The translations under genes were made by a program, and so were the position numbers. Below are positions 1 through 7,986 of a stretch of 7,986 bases of DNA, piece by piece; the first letter of the stretch is position 1; every line of letters starts with the position of its first letter. Below the pieces are notes generated by a model. That model had not been told where the DNA came from. It was given only the letters and a program-made list of their open reading frames with translations, and searched no databases. Origin of the DNA: a virus (Duplodnaviria > Heunggongvirae > Uroviricota > Caudoviricetes); IMG/VR virus record IMGVR_UViG_2645727640_000024; one strand, written 5' to 3'.

Positions 1-992
1 CGCTCAGGAAAGAATCATCGCTCAGTGCATTCACATTTGATGGTCCTTATCGCCTGACCGGGCATGACCTGCTGGACAATATGTACTGTGCTGATAACGG
101 ACGGTGGTATGAAACCCCGGTGGACTGGTACGGTCTGGCAAGAGCAGCCCGGCAAACGTCCTGGCATCAGTCTGCGCTTTACTTTAAGCGCAATGTATTA
201 CTCGGTTGCTACATCCCGCACCCGCTGCTTTCCCGGCAGGATTTCTCGGCGCTGGCGCTGGACTGGTTTGTGTTCGGTAACGCATTCCTTGAGCTTAGAA
301 GCAATATGCTCGGCGAACCGCTTAAATTACGGCACGCCCTGGCGAAATACATGCGACGCGGAAGCGATCTTGAATCATGGTGGTATGTGCAGGATGGCAA
401 GGACGCGTTCCAGTTTCGCCCTGGCAAAGTGTGCCACCTGATGAATCCGGATATTAACCAGGAAATCTACGGCATGCCGGAATATCTTGGCGCATTACTC
501 TCGGCCAGCCTTTCTCATTCGGCGGACATGTTCAGAAAACTGTACTACGACAACGGATCCCACGCCGGGTGCATCATCTACATCGGTGCAGCGCAGGTAA
601 ACCGCGAAAGCATGGACTCCCTGAAAGAAACGTTACAGGGCGCGCGTGGTGGTGGTGCGTTTAAAAACGTACTCATCCATGCGCCCAACGGGGGCAAAGA
701 AGGTGTGCAAATTTTGCCGTTCCAGCAGATCACTGCAAAGGATGAGTTCATGAATGTTAAGGCGGCATCCCGTGATGATGTGCTGGCTGCGCACCGCGTT
801 CCGCCGCAACTGATGGGGGCGATGCCGGGCGAAAAAAGTGCGTTTGGTGATGTGGAGAAGACCGCGCGGGTTTACGCAATTAACGAGCTGATGCCCGTCA
901 TGGAGGCCATGAAGCACATCAATGACTGGCTTGGCGAAGAGGTGATCCGCTTTAACCCTTACGCACTGCTAGATACCCAGCCCACATCCTGA
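1..992 (+). CDS. Q: Phage portal protein, P2 gpQ-like, 5'-partial (reading frame open to the window start; stop at 990-992)
   Basis: Frame starting at position 3 has no stop before the first ATG at 81, so the gene continues upstream of the window. Translation contains motifs I associate with P2-family portal proteins (ALAKYMRRG, HLMNPDINQEIYG, YYDNGSHAG, AAHRVPPQLMG, FGDVEKT). Recognition is from memory, not a search. Confidence 0.8.
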   Translation, partial: LRKESSLSAFTFDGPYRLTGHDLLDNMYCADNGRWYETPVDWYGLARAARQTSWHQSALYFKRNVLLGCYIPHPLLSRQDFSALALDWFVFGNAFLELRSNMLGEPLKLRHALAKYMRRGSDLESWWYVQDGKDAFQFRPGKVCHLMNPDINQEIYGMPEYLGALLSASLSHSADMFRKLYYDNGSHAGCIIYIGAAQVNRESMDSLKETLQGARGGGAFKNVLIHAPNGGKEGVQILPFQQITAKDEFMNVKAASRDDVLAAHRVPPQLMGAMPGEKSAFGDVEKTARVYAINELMPVMEAMKHINDWLGEEVIRFNPYALLDTQPTS

Positions 993-1042: not shown

Positions 1043-1318
1043 GACTCTCCAGCTCCTGTATCAATCAGATAATTTCACGACGCTTTTCTGCTTATTGTCA
1101 TCATCGGCGGTCAGACTCTTACGCAATCCCACCGCGTTGACTGCATGTTCTCGCCGCCTCAGTGCGATTTTGACGGCCTTATCTGCCACCCATCAAATCA
1201 AAAGCCCTCACGTCTTTTTCACGCTCAGCGTGAGAAATACAGCCATTCTGTTGTGTCGCTGCGACATCGTTCAGGGGATGCTATTTACCCCCTGAAACGC
1301 GGGCTGTTCCCCCGTCAC

Positions 1319-1372
1319 CTGCGCGCAGAAAAAACGCGTTTTTTTGTGCACGTACGGATCCTTGACGGATCC
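1319..1372. repeat. Cluster of overlapping perfect palindromes: CTGCGCGCAG, A6-CGCG-T6, GTGCAC, CGTACG, GGATCC twice (ACGGATCC direct repeat, 11-bp period)
   Basis: Read directly: 1319-1328 CTGCGCGCAG; 1329-1344 AAAAAACGCGTTTTTT; 1346-1351 GTGCAC; 1351-1356 CGTACG; 1356-1361 and 1367-1372 GGATCC. TGTGCA-type motifs recur at 1345-1350, 1417-1422, 1427-1432 and 1437-1442. Confidence 0.5.
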
Positions 1373-1443
1373 AGCCACCACGCGGGCCGGAAGTACAAAA
1401 AGTCGTTCAAAAAAATTGTGCAAACTTGTGCACTATCGTGCAA

Positions 1444-1469
1444 ACAAAAAAAGCGCCTTATCGGCGCTT
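1444..1469 (-). terminator. Rho-independent terminator on the - strand (stem AAGCGCC/GGCGCTT, 5-nt loop, followed on the - strand by TTTTTTTGTTTG)
   Basis: Minus-strand reading: GAAGCGCCGATAAGGCGC then a U-tract of 7. It sits 11 bp downstream of the stop of the 1478..1747 (-) ORF. Confidence 0.6.
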
Positions 1470-1477
1470 CAAAAGTA

Positions 1478-1747
1478 TCAATTGTTGCTGTTTATTAATC
1501 GCCAACCACGAACATATGCTTCATAGGCATCTCTGTGCCTTACAGTTCCAGCCTGGCTAAACGGAATGTTAGCTAAAACTAAATCATTCTGAGCCATAGC
1601 GCGTCCTTCAAGCGCATCTTTTATGCCTAGCTCAAAAGCACAGGCAGCGCATTTGTGCCGACCTTCTTGTCCTTGATATTCAGGGAGAGACAGAAATGTT
1701 GGATTATAACGATGAGGGTTCTTGCAAATACCTGTTTTAGCCCGCAC
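1478..1747 (-). CDS. Hypothetical protein (89 aa with GTG start; alternative internal ATG start at 1597 giving 39 aa)
   Basis: ORF with GTG start preceded by GAGGT 7 nt upstream; ends 11 bp before a canonical - strand terminator. Composition is protein-like, but I recognise no family. Coding status is uncertain. Confidence 0.3.
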   Translation of the reverse strand: MRAKTGICKNPHRYNPTFLSLPEYQGQEGRHKCAACAFELGIKDALEGRAMAQNDLVLANIPFSQAGTVRHRDAYEAYVRGWRLINSNN

Positions 1748-2111: not shown

Positions 2112-2423
2112 TTACTCAGGAAATAACGCCCGGATATTCCCAGCCATCTGGCTGGTTATCTTAGCCACTGGTGCAGACTGTGCTTCAAACTTTTTTGAGC
2201 TGATTTGTGTCACAGGTAACATCTCATCATCAGCCCATGCGGCCAGTCGGTAAGCCTCTGCCGGATTCGTCTTCAGAAGTGCCAGCCCGGCCAGAAAAGC
2301 CACGCGTTGGCCGCTTTTGCGGGCTTCTGGTGTAAGGCTGTCCAGCCAGGCGCATGCTTCTCCTTCGTTCTTGACGGCGGCGGGCTTCAGATAGAAACTT
2401 ATCCGTCTGGTTGGTGTCGTCAT
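2112..2423 (-). CDS. parR: ParR-like small partition adaptor / DNA-binding protein (103 aa)
   Basis: ATG at 2423 lies 4 nt after the parM-like TAA stop and 7 nt after an AAGGAG Shine-Dalgarno. The track ORF starts earlier at a TTG inside parM and is probably not the real start. N-terminal region resembles plasmid R1 ParR as I recall it (RRxIxFxLxP, LxAGLAL, C-terminal LFPE). Confidence 0.65.
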   Translation of the reverse strand: MTTPTRRISFYLKPAAVKNEGEACAWLDSLTPEARKSGQRVAFLAGLALLKTNPAEAYRLAAWADDEMLPVTQISSKKFEAQSAPVAKITSQMAGNIRALFPE

Positions 2424-2427
2424 TGGT

Positions 2428-3387
2428 TTACTCCTTGTCCATTGCGTACAGCCCATTAACCAGAGCAAACTGTGGCACCCCGTCCGCGATGAAAGTCGCA
2501 TTAACTCCGCAGGCTTCGCGGATAGCGGGTGCCACAATCTCCGCCCCGCCACCGACAACCATCACCCGCCCGTAACCCGAAAAAACCGCCAGCGCGCGGA
2601 TCACGCGTTGTTTCAGTGTTTCTTCCTTTTCACGAATAACCGCCATCAGGCTGGCGTAATGCGCGTCATTGTGGATGTGCTGGCGCAGCCAGGCTTCATT
2701 ATGGCGATGTTCGATAATGGTATTGGCGATGTGGTGACTGGTGCGCATACCGTTAGTGGCCATCACCGACAGTACGGCATCGGCCATAAGAGAAACGCCT
2801 ACGTGTGGATCGCAAAACACCTGGCTGATACCTGCCAGTTGCCCCTGAACCTTTGCCACATCCAGCGTGGTTCCGCCCAAATCCACAATCAGCAGGGATT
2901 CAAACGGACTCATGTCAGCCAGTGCTTTAAAGCCAGCCGGAATGGATTCAGGCATAACCCGTACGTTACGGATAGTGAATGCTTCGCCGTTCTGGTACTC
3001 CACCGGGCGCATGACGTTCGCTTTTTTGCGGTTGATGTTGGCCATGTCCGGCTGTGCGTTTGTGTCGAAATATTCGCTCAGTGGCAGGGTAACAACCACA
3101 TCCACTTCCTGTGGCGTGATGTCTGATTTGACCAGCGCGTGATGAATGGCAATGACATTCACATCGCTGTACTGGTATTGCGTGTCGGTCGTCTGGACAA
3201 AGCGATCGCTGACCGGATCAAAACCATAGCGCACGCCATCAAGCATGTAGTTAGCAGGCTGCGAGCCACCGAACGGCGCAGACCATTCCGACTTGAAGCT
3301 GTTCGGGCTGATGGCGTTGCGGCGTTCGCCGTTCTCAGTCCATGCCAGCTTGATGTTGGTGGAGCCGTCGTCGATGTAAATTTTCAT
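2428..3387 (-). CDS. parM: ParM/StbA-family actin-like ATPase (319 aa)
   Basis: Actin-fold motifs shared with R1 ParM (R100 StbA): N-terminal IDDGSTNIKL (phosphate 1), LLIVDLGGTTLD (phosphate 2), VVGGGAE (adenosine), plus QYSDVNV, VMPESIPAG, LVNGLY. AAGGA 9 nt upstream of the ATG. Confidence 0.88.
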   Translation of the reverse strand: MKIYIDDGSTNIKLAWTENGERRNAISPNSFKSEWSAPFGGSQPANYMLDGVRYGFDPVSDRFVQTTDTQYQYSDVNVIAIHHALVKSDITPQEVDVVVTLPLSEYFDTNAQPDMANINRKKANVMRPVEYQNGEAFTIRNVRVMPESIPAGFKALADMSPFESLLIVDLGGTTLDVAKVQGQLAGISQVFCDPHVGVSLMADAVLSVMATNGMRTSHHIANTIIEHRHNEAWLRQHIHNDAHYASLMAVIREKEETLKQRVIRALAVFSGYGRVMVVGGGAEIVAPAIREACGVNATFIADGVPQFALVNGLYAMDKE

Positions 3388-3418
3388 GTCGGTTTTCCTT
3401 ATGTTGATTAATTAATCG

Positions 3419-3530
3419 TTTACGGGATTCTGAAATCCCGTTTTTGCCTGTTTTGTGCGCGCTTCATATATCGCTGCGCGTTTTTTGCTCATTTACGGGA
3501 TTCGTGAGTCCCGTTTCTGTCTGTTTTTTG
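3419..3530. repeat. Two imperfect 39-bp direct repeats (3419-3457 and 3492-3530), each an 8-bp-stem hairpin (ACGGGATT ... AnTCCCGT) followed by a T-rich tract
   Basis: Copy A TTTACGGGATTCTGAAATCCCGTTTTTGCCTGTTTTGTG; copy B TTTACGGGATTCGTGAGTCCCGTTTCTGTCTGTTTTTTG. Stems are conserved while loops differ. Copy A lies between the A stop and the parM start; copy B lies inside the last codons of the A ORF. Confidence 0.6.
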
Positions 3531-6304
3531 TTTCCACTGGTCAGGCCACCCCGCAGCAGGTCTGCTTTGCGGCTGGCGCGTTCAGTGGTTTCACTGATTC
3601 TCTGTGCGTGCTCTGCGTCGCGGATGGCGCGCAGCATGTCAGAAAGCACGGTAACGGGTGTTTTCATGGTGTTCTGGTCCTGCTGAAGTGTGGATGCCAG
3701 GCGTGCGGCGGCTTCAGGGTCTGATGCCCCCAGCTGTGCCAGATAGCTGGCGACCGGGTTATGGCGGATCTCCGTGCTGCTTACGCCATGATTACGGCTC
3801 AGACGCTGCCAGAGCTGCGTGATTCGGCTGTCCGGGCGGGTATCCGGTTTGCGTACAATTTCAAATCCCTGCGGTGCAATGATGCTGCCGTCAACGTACA
3901 GACTGCCGCCCCGTAACAGGTGCTGCATCTGTTGTTCACCGATATGCAGGCCGAGAGATTCAGCAGACTCCCGCCATTCTTTAGCGAGTAACTCGTGGTT
4001 ATCAGGCAAAGGCCGCTGCTGTTTGCGGCTCTGTGTCCAGTTCTGCATTTCATCGCTGCTGTTTTTTGCCTGTTTGTCACGAAGCGAACGCATCAGCGCC
4101 CGGCGTTCGTGCCGTTTCAGTGAGCGCATCCATTCATTTACTTCAACGCCGTCAGGAAGCTGCGGCCACGGTGCTGGCCGTTCTTCCGGCTGTTCTGTCC
4201 CGTTGTTGCCTGTTTCCTGTACACGGGGACAGTTATTGCCACGAGTCCAAGGGGCGGCAGGGCCGCCCTGAAGGTCAAAACCATTTTCGCGGGCGCTGTC
4301 TTCCGCTTCCGGTTTACGTCTTACCAGCTTCCAGTTATCCGGATGCGTGCACACACGGGAGGATTCCCCGATGAATGGCGACCAGATCCCGTAAATCTGT
4401 ACACTCTGTTCGCCGTAATCGTTCAGCTCATCTGCGAGGTCGTAGGCTGTGCGAATCAGGTAGTCCTTGCGCGGAACAAGTACGCCACCCTGTTTTTCAA
4501 TGTAGGTGGCAAAACATCCGGCATCAGCGGCAGCGAGTACCGCATCCATTGCATCATCCTTCAGCCGTTGTGGGCCTTCCGGGTTGCGTGCCATCTGGCT
4601 GGCAAGGCGGCGGAGTTCACGCCATACCTGACGGGAGGGGATGCCAAAGAACTGGAACTGGCGGACCCGGTGAAGGCGTGCCCAGCCGATGGCGCGTTCC
4701 ACGCTCTCGGCCATTGATTTTCCGGTTTCGTGGTCAACGCGTGGCTTGCCCGTTTTCGGGTCGATGCCATCCACGGCGCGGCTGTCCAGGTTCTTTCCGA
4801 TGTAGGTGGCGATGTAGCTGGTTGGCGTGCCTTTTGAGCCGTCGACATACTCCACCTTAAAGCGCGGAGTAATATCATTGCCCAGCTCGTGGCGGTCTTC
4901 CTGAATGGCAATATCGCGGGTGTGGGACACAATGGTGTCGATTTCTTCCGGATGAGCAAAGACCATCATATGCCAGTGCACGGTGCCGTCATGGTGAGGC
5001 TCCACCGTGCGGATGCCATACCAGCGCAGGCCGTCGCGGTTCAGTTTCTTGCGGACCGCCGCAAAAAACGTGTTAACCAGGTAATCGCTGGAGTCGCGCA
5101 TGGTGGCCCCGTTCCATTTGGGATTCGGATGACCGTTCTCTGTTGTGGCGTGGTATTTTGACGGGCAGGTGACAGTCAGAAACACCGCTCTGTCGCCACG
5201 GGCTTCGGCCAGAAGTTCCAGCCCCTTCATGGTGGCCATCATTTCTGCCTTACGGTGAATCGGGTTACTTACTCCCGCGTAATACACTGTCTCGAGATCA
5301 ATCGTGAACCCGTCTTCGTTTTCCAGCATGAAACTTTTCAGGAAATCGCGTGTTTTCTCGCGCTGTGCGCGAAACTCGCTTAACGCGTCCTGGCTCAGAT
5401 AGGGTGATGTTTTTCTGGAAACCAGACAGGCGGCGCGGAGTTGTTCTTCTCTCCACTCGCAACGTAACAGCCACAGTTTGCGTTTCCACCATTCCGCACA
5501 GGTCAGGCGAAGGATTGCGCCCGGCAGCAGCTCCGTGTCCGGTTCATTCCTCCGGTCTTTGTCTGTTGTCAGAGCGTCATAATGTGGAGGCATAGCGTGC
5601 AGGTGTAACGCCATGCGGGCCAGCATCTGATACGCCTTCAGCGTTACATCCATGGTCAGCTCGCCATCGGTCGCGCCAAAGCCATCGCAGAGTTTTTCAA
5701 AAGTGCCACTGAACATCGCCGCCGTCATGGTGGCCAGCGTCTGTATCTGGTGTTTGTTGAGCTGCGGCAGGTAAAGCAAATCGTCCAGGCGTTCGCGTCC
5801 GGCAAGGGAGCGATAGCCCGGTGTCAGCCAGCGGCTGTCGGTGCGGTCCAGACGTTCGAATATTTTGCGCAGGGTTCCGCGCGCGTAGCGTTCAGCCTGC
5901 CAGCTCTTTTTGCCTTTCTGACGATCGGCTTCCTGCTTCTTGCGCAGAAAAGAGAGGTGGCGGCTCAGAGGTTCACGCAGATAAACGGGAAGCACCTTCA
6001 GTGTGGCAAAAGCACGGGCCACCGGGTCTTGTTCTGTTGCCTGACGCTTGCTGATGATGCTTTGTGCCAGCTTTTCACGCTGTCCGGCTTCCTCAAGGGA
6101 TGCCATGAGTTTTTTACCCACGGTGGATTGTGCGAAAAAGGCTTCTTCCTTCGCTTCCTGTTCTTCCTGTGCCCTTTTGTTTGCCTCAAGGTAGTAACGG
6201 ATGGCGCGTTGCAGGTCGGTTTCAGTTTCCTGCCTGCGCTCCGTAAATCTGGCCGGATCAATGGCTGGCCGTGGTTCATTCCAGCTCCATGCAAACGCAC
6301 TCAT
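3464..6304 (-). CDS. A: Rolling-circle replication initiator endonuclease, P2 gpA-like (946 aa from the ATG at 6304; the track ORF begins at an upstream GTG at 6331)
   Basis: HUH-type motifs: HWHMMVF (metal-binding His pair), catalytic tyrosine pair YIATYIGKNLD, FLTVTCPSKYH. The ATG at 6304 overlaps the upstream gene stop (ATGA). The ORF is long and reads through repeat copy B at its 3' end. Confidence 0.9.
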   Translation of the reverse strand: MSAFAWSWNEPRPAIDPARFTERRQETETDLQRAIRYYLEANKRAQEEQEAKEEAFFAQSTVGKKLMASLEEAGQREKLAQSIISKRQATEQDPVARAFATLKVLPVYLREPLSRHLSFLRKKQEADRQKGKKSWQAERYARGTLRKIFERLDRTDSRWLTPGYRSLAGRERLDDLLYLPQLNKHQIQTLATMTAAMFSGTFEKLCDGFGATDGELTMDVTLKAYQMLARMALHLHAMPPHYDALTTDKDRRNEPDTELLPGAILRLTCAEWWKRKLWLLRCEWREEQLRAACLVSRKTSPYLSQDALSEFRAQREKTRDFLKSFMLENEDGFTIDLETVYYAGVSNPIHRKAEMMATMKGLELLAEARGDRAVFLTVTCPSKYHATTENGHPNPKWNGATMRDSSDYLVNTFFAAVRKKLNRDGLRWYGIRTVEPHHDGTVHWHMMVFAHPEEIDTIVSHTRDIAIQEDRHELGNDITPRFKVEYVDGSKGTPTSYIATYIGKNLDSRAVDGIDPKTGKPRVDHETGKSMAESVERAIGWARLHRVRQFQFFGIPSRQVWRELRRLASQMARNPEGPQRLKDDAMDAVLAAADAGCFATYIEKQGGVLVPRKDYLIRTAYDLADELNDYGEQSVQIYGIWSPFIGESSRVCTHPDNWKLVRRKPEAEDSARENGFDLQGGPAAPWTRGNNCPRVQETGNNGTEQPEERPAPWPQLPDGVEVNEWMRSLKRHERRALMRSLRDKQAKNSSDEMQNWTQSRKQQRPLPDNHELLAKEWRESAESLGLHIGEQQMQHLLRGGSLYVDGSIIAPQGFEIVRKPDTRPDSRITQLWQRLSRNHGVSSTEIRHNPVASYLAQLGASDPEAAARLASTLQQDQNTMKTPVTVLSDMLRAIRDAEHAQRISETTERASRKADLLRGGLTSGNKKQTETGLTNPVNEQKTRSDI

Positions 6305-6690
6305 GGCTGGTATCCCGTCACGCGCTGCCACTCCTGTGAGAAGAGGGCGGAAAGGCGGTTAAATTCAGCGGAGTATTCACTCAGCGAGGCACACCCGCCA
6401 GCAGTGCGATGCGCCAGCATTGCCGCAAATATGGAGGCCGGGGAGTCGTAATACGCCAGCAGTGATTCGCCGTGTGGTGTCAGGCAGTGCAACGCCAGCC
6501 CGTGTGGTGTGAAGTCCACGCGGTAGCAGTCGTCTACTGTGAAATAAAGGGTGTCTGCATTCTCCGGTTTTGTGGTGCGTGCTCTGTTGTCACGACCACG
6601 GATGTAGAGATCAAATAATCCCTGAAGAACGGGAGCCAGACGGGTGTCCTGTGTGCGCACCCATCTTGTGAAGTCATGAGCGTCAATCAT
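6301..6690 (-). CDS. Hypothetical early-operon protein (129 aa) immediately upstream of A
   Basis: ATG start; its stop overlaps the A start (ATGA). Position corresponds to the small ORFs preceding A in P2-type early operons. No family recognised. Confidence 0.6.
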   Translation of the reverse strand: MIDAHDFTRWVRTQDTRLAPVLQGLFDLYIRGRDNRARTTKPENADTLYFTVDDCYRVDFTPHGLALHCLTPHGESLLAYYDSPASIFAAMLAHRTAGGCASLSEYSAEFNRLSALFSQEWQRVTGYQP

Positions 6691-7667: not shown

Positions 7668-7986
7668 TTAATCTGCTTTCTGAATTTCAGCTTCTGAATC
7701 CATGCAGATAATCTCGATATAGGGTTCATCGCCATTAACCTGACGAGATTTTTCGGCTTCGCTAATTATTTCGCGAATGATCTGGTACGGAAGCTCTACA
7801 GTCAGGCGTGTACCGTTCAGATAAACGTAGGTAGCTGCGTTTTTTTCAGATGGAACTACTCCGTCAATAGCTGATGCGCGTAATAACAGTTCACCGCGAA
7901 GGTGATGCTGCCAACTTACTGATTTAGTGTATGATGGTGTTTTTGAGGTGCTCCAGTGGCTTCTGTTTCTATCAGCTGTCCCTCCT
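7668..7986 (-). CDS. Hypothetical early protein, 5'-partial (open to the window end; C-terminus ...PYIEIICMDSEAEIQKAD)
   Basis: My own translation of the - strand from 7985 down to the TAA at 7668-7670 has no stop (105 codons). Not in the ORF track because the start lies outside the window. Confidence 0.5.
   Translation of the reverse strand, partial: GGTADRNRSHWSTSKTPSYTKSVSWQHHLRGELLLRASAIDGVVPSEKNAATYVYLNGTRLTVELPYQIIREIISEAEKSRQVNGDEPYIEIICMDSEAEIQKAD

Follow-up and report, generated by a model that had tools for sequence, protein, structure and literature searches.

The stretch of DNA analyzed here (the window; 7,986 nt, IMG/VR record IMGVR_UViG_2645727640_000024) is part of a P88-like prophage (Xuanwuvirus, Peduoviridae, the P2 family), with 92-97% identity to several Escherichia phage records, and our analyses indicate that positions 1319-1445, together with the adjoining positions 1285-1318, form its cohesive-end (cos) packaging site, a homologue of the cos sites of P2, 186, and P4. 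We put the probability of this reading at about 0.85, on the strength of the location, homology, architecture, and conservation pattern of the region. An earlier note on this DNA, made from the letters alone, had flagged 1319-1445 as a run of palindromes followed by TGTGCA repeats and had proposed a divergent cos, a packaging signal, or an unrelated protein-binding array. Location, homology, and spacing support the first two proposals, with the correction that the flagged interval is only the flank of the site and not the cohesive end itself, because the predicted core, at 1301-1321, adjoins and overlaps its left edge; the unrelated array is rejected. Located towards the right end from the predicted cut, the flagged interval is therefore best read as the putative terminase recognition (cosB-like) flank of a divergent cos of the P2 type.

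The region lies where a P2-family cos is expected, as the earlier note had anticipated. In P2, cos has been positioned between gpA and gpQ (Rousset et al., PMC9122126). In the window, one side is occupied by the 3' part of a portal gene, whose product is 47% identical to P2 gpQ (E = 7e-114) and is annotated as portal protein in P88 and its relatives; the gene stops at 992 and is read towards cos, as in P2. The other side carries cargo and then the gpA replication gene (3467-6331; Pfam Phage_GPA, E = 1e-129), the genes there being, all on the minus strand, an 89-amino acid open reading frame (ORF), StbB, ParM/StbA, and gpA. The order portal gene, cos, hotspot position on the gpA side is common to the window and to P2, 186, PSP3, and P4. 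A cognate terminase is also present in the lineage, its genes lying outside the window: P88, with 92% identity in the cos region, has a large-terminase gene adjoining the portal gene and encodes a small terminase homologous to P2 gpM (37% identity, E = 2e-42).

The comparison with mapped cos sites of the P2 family carries most of the argument. The passages of PMC3931495, PMC5694545, and PMC9594776 that cite Ziermann and Calendar (1990) describe the cos of P2, 186, PSP3, and P4 as 19-nt 5' cohesive ends within a conserved 55-bp core. We took the annotated cohesive ends of these four genomes from their records and rebuilt the circular junctions in the orientation of the window. All four share one order, namely GCGCGC, a C-rich 19-mer (GTGCTTTCCCCGCCTCGCC in P2), a stem-loop of ~19 nt, TTTT(A)ATGCA, ~65 nt of unrelated sequence, and three ATGCA copies. 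The window presents, in the same order, GGGCTGTTCCCCCGTCACCTG (1301-1321), CGCGCAGAAAAAACGCG, T7-GTGCA, a spacer, and three GTGCA copies, so that it shares with the four references a C-rich 19-nt core between GCGCGC-type flanks, followed by ~19 nt of stem-loop-prone sequence and a T-run. The right half of the 55-bp core is likewise recognizable, with T7 and GTGCA at +25 as in P2, 186, PSP3, and P4 and with a stem-loop that is present, if weak. Beyond this core, the references led us to define a group of three distal repeats (NTGCA ~97-120 nt from the cohesive end), and the window has them at +97, +107, and +117 versus +97, +107, and +116 to +120 in the references (Table 1, where RTGCA positions are counted from the end of the 19-mer). 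The distances from the first site to the second (72 nt) and to the third (82 nt) are identical in the window, P2, 186, P4, and PSP3 whatever register is chosen for the overhang, and the probability of two such coincidences is ~(2/4^5)^2 = 4e-6 at equal base frequencies. Flanking bases also agree, the window, P2, 186, and P4 all having TGCAA at the second site and TGCAC at the third; the last repeat lies 10 nt from the third in the window versus 9-13 nt in P2, 186, PSP3, and P4. The alignment to P2, 186, and PSP3 that the earlier note had suggested as a check therefore returns the same architecture and spacing. A functional role of the distal repeats agrees with the reported behavior of P2/P4 cosmids, in which flanks beyond the 55-bp P4 core raise transduction more than 1000-fold (PMC9594776).

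The earlier note had seen no resemblance to the GC-rich 19-nt end of P2/186, a statement that does not stand, since a P2-like C-rich core related to GGCGAGGCGGGGAAAGCAC occurs at 1301-1321, matching the P2 19-mer at 13 of 19 positions when 1301-1319 is compared and at 10 of 19 when 1303-1321 is compared (i.e. the window differs from the P2 overhang at 6-9 of 19 positions). Because this similarity is moderate, the homology rests on the architecture as a whole. The 19-nt overhang would correspond either to 1301-1319, the best sequence match to P2, or to 1303-1321, which gives the same distances to the repeats as in P2, 186, and P4. A profile built from 21 relatives, excluding the window, gave a single match in the circularized P2 genome, ungapped and located at the annotated cos (E = 0.013). 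Two types of core occur among the relatives, type 1 as in the window and type 2 with the core CTTGCTCCCCCGCCTCGCC, which is identical to the P2 overhang at 14 of 19 positions, has GCGCGC on both flanks, and bridges P2 and the window. An alternative alignment, placing the P2 left flank CAGCGCGCA opposite CTGCGCGCA of the window and giving the overhang GAAAAAACGCGTTTTTTTG, was rejected because this overhang is not kept in phiT5282H-type relatives, breaks the +25 spacing, and is not the register chosen by the profile search. As a separate observation, the core of the P88-type phage P884B11 differs on its left (AAACCTGTCCCCCCGTCACC vs AAACGCGGGCTGTTCCCCCGTCACC in the window), a 5-nt difference located where the left nick is predicted. 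Directly left of the predicted core, an 8-bp inverted repeat (TTCAGGGG, 1270-1277, and CCCCTGAA, 1289-1296) occurs in the P88 subgroup only (e.g. loci L013 and L038).

The layout extends well beyond the P88 group. A portal-fragment scan with one genome per species yielded 52 loci, and the same ~157-nt layout past the portal gene was found in all 39 that had a portal identity of at least 56% and downstream DNA available, in Escherichia, Salmonella, Klebsiella, Enterobacter, Pantoea, Brenneria, Serratia, and Morganella, the alignment being gap-free in every locus but one degenerate symbiont copy (L053). In the more distant phage phiT5282H, the DNA-level match to the intergenic region is confined to window positions 1298-1448. 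Of 5426 complete Escherichia coli genomes, 1102 (~20%) contain the block, and 1247 of the 1248 places carrying it are chromosomal. E. coli 503025 (NZ_CP025892.1) has it at 100% identity.

Conservation was followed as information content over 22 diverse sequences from across genera and as retention among 103 unique type-1 sequences in IMG/VR. Information content is 0.50 bits left of the core (1258-1284), rises to 0.97 bits over 1287-1300, and reaches 1.51 bits in the core, 1.52 bits in TGCGCGC, and 1.83 bits in T5GTGCA, an element that played no part in the selection of the sequences; it averages 0.94 bits over 1362-1406, is 1.52 bits in TCA7TT, is high in the repeats too, and drops to 0.25 bits directly past 1443. 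Retention follows the same elements: TGCGCGC, which mirrors the left-flank GCGCGC of P2, 186, P4, and the type-2 cos, is kept in 92/103, five T residues of the T-run at 1339-1345 in 95/103, GTGCA at 1346 in 93/103, GATC at 1357-1360 in 87/103, the A7 tract (not found in P2, 186, and P4) in 86/103, and the three distal repeats in 91, 88, and 80 of 103, these last counts being lower bounds because no gaps were allowed. It is of note that the GATC at this fixed position, and a second at 1368-1371, is a Dam site; the former occurs in almost all type-1 sequences of other genera and is absent from type-2 sequences, P2, 186, and P4, with PSP3 having a GATCC nearby.

The palindromes that had first drawn attention to the region are a different matter. 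A maximal-palindrome scan returned exactly the six that the earlier note had placed between 1319 and 1372, and perfect palindromes of at least 6 nt cover 48 of these 54 bases, the densest 54-nt stretch of the window. This coverage was attained in none of 1000 simulations of the entire window by a first-order Markov model (maximum per simulation, mean 29.2, standard deviation 3.7, highest 46) and in none of 2000 with intergenic composition only, so that the density is indeed above random expectation; the 16-nt palindrome by itself is unremarkable, an equal or longer one arising in 146 of 1000 simulations. As the key feature of the region, on the other hand, the palindromes do not hold up, being dense but mostly not conserved: among the 103 sequences the full 10-mer CTGCGCGCAG is kept in 63, perfect A6CGCGT6 in 33, GTGCAC in 59, CGTACG in 5 (0.58 bits), and the first and second GGATCC in 63 and 60, and A6CGCGT6, CGTACG, and the second GGATCC are missing from relatives that share this architecture. 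The A6 tract with its perfect 16-nt palindrome is specific to the P88 subgroup, as is the second GGATCC; other subgroups carry GACATTTGCTTCGTTTTTT in place of the former, and phiT5282H-type sequences have GACATTTGCTTCG-T6 where the window has A6CGCG-T7. We therefore interpret A6CGCGT6 as the conserved T-run with a fortuitously A-rich loop in front of it, GTGCAC as incidental to repeat 1, CGTACG as a chance palindrome, and the two GGATCC copies as a subgroup-specific dyad. Given this retention in the 103 relatives, the density of palindromes is an embellishment of the P88 subgroup on a conserved scaffold, the conserved elements being TGCGCGC, the T-run with GTGCA, GATC(C), A7TT, and the GTGCA repeats.

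TGTGCA is not enriched in the window (8 observed, 7.5 expected), but the extended form TYGTGCAM occurs five times against 1.7 expected, a count attained in 7 of 200 shuffles, and four of the five copies, at 1344, 1416, 1426, and 1436 and all on the plus strand, belong to the region, with the three distal ones spaced by exactly 10 nt. The array of TGTGCA repeats described in the earlier note is real; its count had missed a fourth copy, the GTGCA at 1346, which lies inside the palindrome block.

Because a stem followed by a T-run recurs at the same place in P2, 186, PSP3, and P4 (-9.6 to -14.0 kcal/mol) and in several relatives, the stem sequences differing, the region might be thought to serve mainly as a pair of inward-facing terminators or insulators between the late operon (terminase and portal genes, plus strand) and the converging cargo (minus strand), a function that could coexist with cos. 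The candidates would be the stem-loop with T7 at 1321-1345 on the plus strand and GTGCACAAGTTTGCAC with T7 at 1433-1409 on the minus strand; both the T-run and the A7 tract are conserved, and the terminator scan flags a weak terminator-like site at 1433-1418 on the minus strand. The plus-strand hairpin of the window is however weak (-5.4 kcal/mol, z = -0.3, against -13.6 in P2 and -14.0 in P4) and is passed over by the scan, and the phiT5282H type has practically none (-1.8 kcal/mol). Moreover, in P2 a terminator, tQ, is already annotated upstream of cos, and in the window the cargo ORF ends in a strong terminator of its own (1470-1450). Termination also leaves unexplained why four repeats stand on one strand at constant spacing, an arrangement that P4 satellites keep as well. 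We consider it improbable that termination is the main role of the region. Folding z-scores are unremarkable overall (mean z = -0.64 in the spacer), and for this reason we claim no required structure for either the stem-loop or the spacer dyad. GC-rich dyads do occur in other lineages ~12 nt further right, as CCGCGCC/GGCGCGG in P4, CCGCGCCAG/CTGGCGCGG in type 2, and CGCGCAGCCC/GGGCTTGCGCG in Morganella.

The repeats could also be viewed as an operator, promoter, or late-activator site of the adjacent cargo (hotspot) genes. The late-activator motif of P2 is TGT-N12-ACA, to which a TGT-N12-ACT in 1417-1434 bears a loose resemblance, and in P2 transcription of old-tin starts at 33424 and 33426, ~149-151 nt from cos and just beyond the third ATGCA. 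However, repeats of the ATGCA type lack the TGT half-site, no sigma-70-like promoter was found on either strand of 950-1800, and the neighboring gene is read towards the repeats and stops short of them. Furthermore, 39 species and the P4 satellites keep the repeats although the cargo beside them is unrelated, the cargo side not being conserved at all, which makes a role in cargo regulation very unlikely. A further suggestion arises from the plasmid-type partition module that this integrated P2-family prophage carries at 2115-3387 on the minus strand, encoding ParM/StbA (Pfam StbA_N, E = 1e-80) and StbB (Plasmid_stab_B, E = 2e-23). Since centromeres of partition systems consist of iterons spaced by a helical turn, the repeats might be the parC-like centromere of these ParM/StbA (ParM) and StbB (ParR) genes, which lie ~0.7-2 kb away. 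In ParMRC systems, parC lies directly upstream of parM, so that the expected site would be 3388-3463, whereas the repeats lie on the far side, separated by ~670 nt from the end of stbB and by 1 kb from parM; iterons directly upstream of parM, the hallmark of such a centromere, are thus not what the repeats represent. Moreover, phiT5282H and many prophages whose cargo differs have these repeats at unchanged distances from cos, and P2, 186, and P4 have ATGCA equivalents, their record annotation showing no such module beside cos. We regard a centromere as scarcely credible. The parM-gpA gap itself (3388-3463) contains a 12-nt palindrome, GATTAATTAATC (3406-3417), and a hairpin, ACGGGATTCTGAAATCCCGT (3422-3441), which could be a centromere, a promoter, or a gpA terminator.

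Several points weigh against the assignment of the region as a P2-type cos. The match of the core to the P2 overhang is limited and the profile E value modest, with two registers, 2 nt apart, being possible. No record or contig was found to end at the predicted core among the phage records, the 120 IMG/VR loci (nearly all prophage-derived), or the metagenome loci (a sample of 120, of which 53 were real cos sites, all internal). The only linear record of the P88 type, that of P884B11 (LR595891.1, Xuanwuvirus; loci L001/L008) opens at the equivalent of window position 1397/1398, in the spacer and not in the core; this record has no terminal duplication, and its opening point was judged to be arbitrary rather than cos. 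Many of the 103 IMG/VR sequences are closely related, so that the retention counts are partly inherited rather than independent. The stem before the T-run is not universal, although stems of differing sequence occupy this place in P2, 186, PSP3, P4, and several relatives; the spacer dyad is not universal either, P2 having none. We know of no demonstration that the small terminase binds the repeats, even for P2. A literature search found no end mapping for a P88 or Xuanwuvirus cos.

Taking the region as a cos, we infer by analogy where the nicks would fall, which protein would bind the repeats, how the DNA might bend, and in which direction packaging would run. The cos of phage lambda consists of a nicking site, cosN, and of cosB, with the gpNu1 sites R3, R2, and R1 and the integration host factor (IHF) site I1. 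On this model, the small terminase (the gpM homologue) would bind the four same-strand GTGCA sites. A fixed spacer of 67 nt, with its dyad and A7 tract, separates the proximal GTGCA from the three distal ones, which lie one helical turn apart, and this fixed spacing together with the A/T tracts might let the DNA wrap or bend and so bring the proximal and distal sites together. In the wrapped complex, the large subunit (the gpP homologue) would then be placed so as to nick the C-rich core on both strands with a stagger of 19 nt, and packaging would start from this end after nicking. The two systems are alike in outline, each with a nicking site of partial two-fold symmetry, direct repeats on the first-packaged side, one proximal and the others distal, and a spacer between them where the DNA is thought to bend, but they differ in that lambda has a 12-nt overhang versus a presumed 19 nt here and three R sites with an IHF site versus four sites here. 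A match to the IHF consensus WATCARNNNNTTR was sought by eye between the repeats and was not found, the conserved (A/T)TCAAAAAAATTG before the distal repeats being off by one base in spacing, as is the nearest IHF-like match in the relatives, ATCAA-N5-TTG. The likeness to lambda cosB is best regarded as a functional analogy and not as membership.

Within the P2 family, the window differs from its references in several ways. Its repeats read GTGCA instead of the ATGCA of P2, 186, and P4, a weak CGCG stem with an A6 loop replaces the GC-rich stem-loop of the 55-bp core of P2, 186, PSP3, and P4, and an additional A7TT before the distal repeats, as well as GATC and GGATCC in the spacer, set it apart from P2, 186, and P4. 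The Pseudomonas phage phiCTX (NC_003278) offers a third spelling of the same layout, with a P2-family cos, a C-rich core, T5-CTGCA at ~+25, and CTGCG/CTGCA at +95 and +105; it differs in the initial C of the repeat, in distances shorter by 2 nt, in an annotated overhang of 21 nt, and in the location of the ctx cargo gene between cos and the portal gene. The record annotates cosL, cosR, repeats R1-R6, and IHF sites around cos, which are not equated here with the CTGCA/CTGCR repeats. As with ctx in phiCTX, a second slot for cargo, between the portal gene and cos, is seen in some close relatives, namely L013 (3990-4900) and 12 IMG/VR loci (e.g. L075, L082, and L084), where ~0.6 kb of extra DNA encodes a 187-amino acid ORF on the opposite strand and the core lies ~937 nt past the portal gene versus 311 nt in the window. 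The first base of NTGCA is thus A in P2, 186, and P4, G in the P88, phiT5282H, and 3LV2017 lineages, and C in phiCTX. These comparisons suggest that a functional P2-family cos spans ~160 bp with four spaced repeats, reaching beyond the 55-bp core, and that one base of the repeat distinguishes the lineages. From the use of GTGCA rather than ATGCA and from the different overhang, it would follow that the P88-like lineage has a distinct packaging specificity within the same architecture.

P4-like satellites share little with their helpers besides cos, yet they keep the 1+3 layout. Among such elements, defined by a Psu identity of at least 62%, the layout was found in 73 of 75 that could be evaluated, and all 73 have ATGCA. 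In contrast, the type-1 17-mer has 120 matches in IMG/VR, of which all 111 evaluable ones adjoin a P88-like portal gene. A search for satellites with a GTGCA-type cos turned up three 17-mer matches with no portal gene nearby, which were dismissed as chance since the architecture is absent. This pattern fits, but does not prove, the GTGCA form being a separate packaging specificity unused by P4-like satellites. In the satellites (L190-L269), the distal triple repeat ATGCAAAGCCATGCACCTTATCGATGCA, located downstream of psu, is almost invariant, in contrast to the usual statement that P4 and P2 share just the 55-bp core, and it is accompanied by several 19-mer cores, e.g. ATGCTCTCCCCGCCACGCC. A more far-reaching idea, which we offer tentatively and consider somewhat unlikely as a whole, is that the P2 family packages via a fixed 1+3 iteron scaffold with specificity set by the first base of NTGCA and by the overhang, the GTGCA form acting as a specificity switch against P4-like satellites and against cross-packaging with P2/186. 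If so, the GTGCA form would spare these phages both exploitation by satellites and cross-packaging with co-resident prophages of the P2/186 type. Since the lineages would differ by one base of the repeat, packaging specificity and helper-satellite compatibility are directly testable by base swaps.

The element described here is an ordinary and very common one that is simply unannotated. In the public records examined, the block is either unannotated or overlaid by doubtful small ORFs. In the RefSeq record of P88 (NC_026014.1; L003 2572-2863, corresponding to ~1061-1350 of the window), for example, two small hypothetical proteins, SF19_gp22 (129 nt) and SF19_gp21 (144 nt), are annotated across the portal-cos intergenic region and the cos core; these are probably not genes, because the conservation pattern is non-coding. 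The elements listed in Table 1 provide a testable map of the packaging site for very common but little-studied prophages of E. coli and other enterobacteria, which may be used to correct genome ends in records, to build cosmids or transducing particles on P88-type helpers, and to read the defense-gene hotspot that starts past the last repeat.

Table 1. Coordinates of features in and around the predicted cos of the window, and positions of RTGCA sites relative to the cohesive end
Feature	Position	Strand	Basis or remark
Portal gene, 3' part (P2 gpQ homologue)	3-992	+	Open frame, stop 990-992; read towards cos as in P2
Left flank of cos core (ACCCCC...CGCG), left limit of cross-genus conservation	1285-1300		Information content; P2, 186, PSP3, and P4 have GCGCGC there
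Predicted cohesive-end core (cosN equivalent), GGGCTGTTCCCCCGTCACCTG	1301-1321		Profile match to P2 cos, conservation
Palindrome CTGCGCGCAG	1319-1328		Maximal-palindrome scan
TGCGCGC, putative nick flank, in palindrome CTGCGCGCAG	1320-1326		Flanks/overlaps predicted right nick
Palindrome AAAAAACGCGTTTTTT (A6CGCGT6, 16 nt)	1329-1344		Maximal-palindrome scan
A6-CGCG-T7	1329-1345	+	Position of stem-loop and TTTT in P2/P4 55-bp core
GTGCA repeat 1, proximal	1346-1350	+	+25 from 1321
Palindrome GTGCAC	1346-1351		Maximal-palindrome scan
Palindrome CGTACG	1351-1356		Maximal-palindrome scan
Palindrome GGATCC, two copies	1356-1361 and 1367-1372		Maximal-palindrome scan
GGATCC-N5-GGATCC dyad, 6-bp stem possible	1356-1372		Copy 1 holds GATC(C) conserved in type-1 lineage
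Spacer, fixed length, variable sequence	1373-1408		Between proximal and distal repeats
A7TT tract	1409-1417	+	Directly before distal repeats
Three direct GTGCA repeats	1418-1422, 1428-1432, 1438-1442	+	+97, +107, +117
Intrinsic terminator of converging 89-amino acid cargo ORF	1450-1470	-	Terminator scan: 8-bp stem, 5 GC pairs, T-run
RTGCA sites, window	+25, +97, +107, +117		19-mer taken as 1303-1321
RTGCA sites, P2	+25, +97, +107, +119
RTGCA sites, 186 and P4	+25, +97, +107, +120
RTGCA sites, PSP3	+25, +97, +107, +116

The right boundary of the conserved cos block is marked by the terminator of the cargo ORF, which lies outside the block and whose sequence is not kept in relatives. The ORF itself (1478-1747, minus strand) is the gene nearest to cos on the cargo side and lies where P2 has its defense hotspot; it belongs to PHROG 3941, of unknown function, and its product has no Pfam match. 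No ORF of at least 60 amino acids was found in the 365 nt between it and stbB (1748-2114). At the far end of the window, the final 87 bases (7900-7986) are 100% identical to the end of the insertion sequence IS1 as annotated in phage P1 records, and because the P88-like homology ends at 7900, the prophage is interrupted or bordered by IS1.

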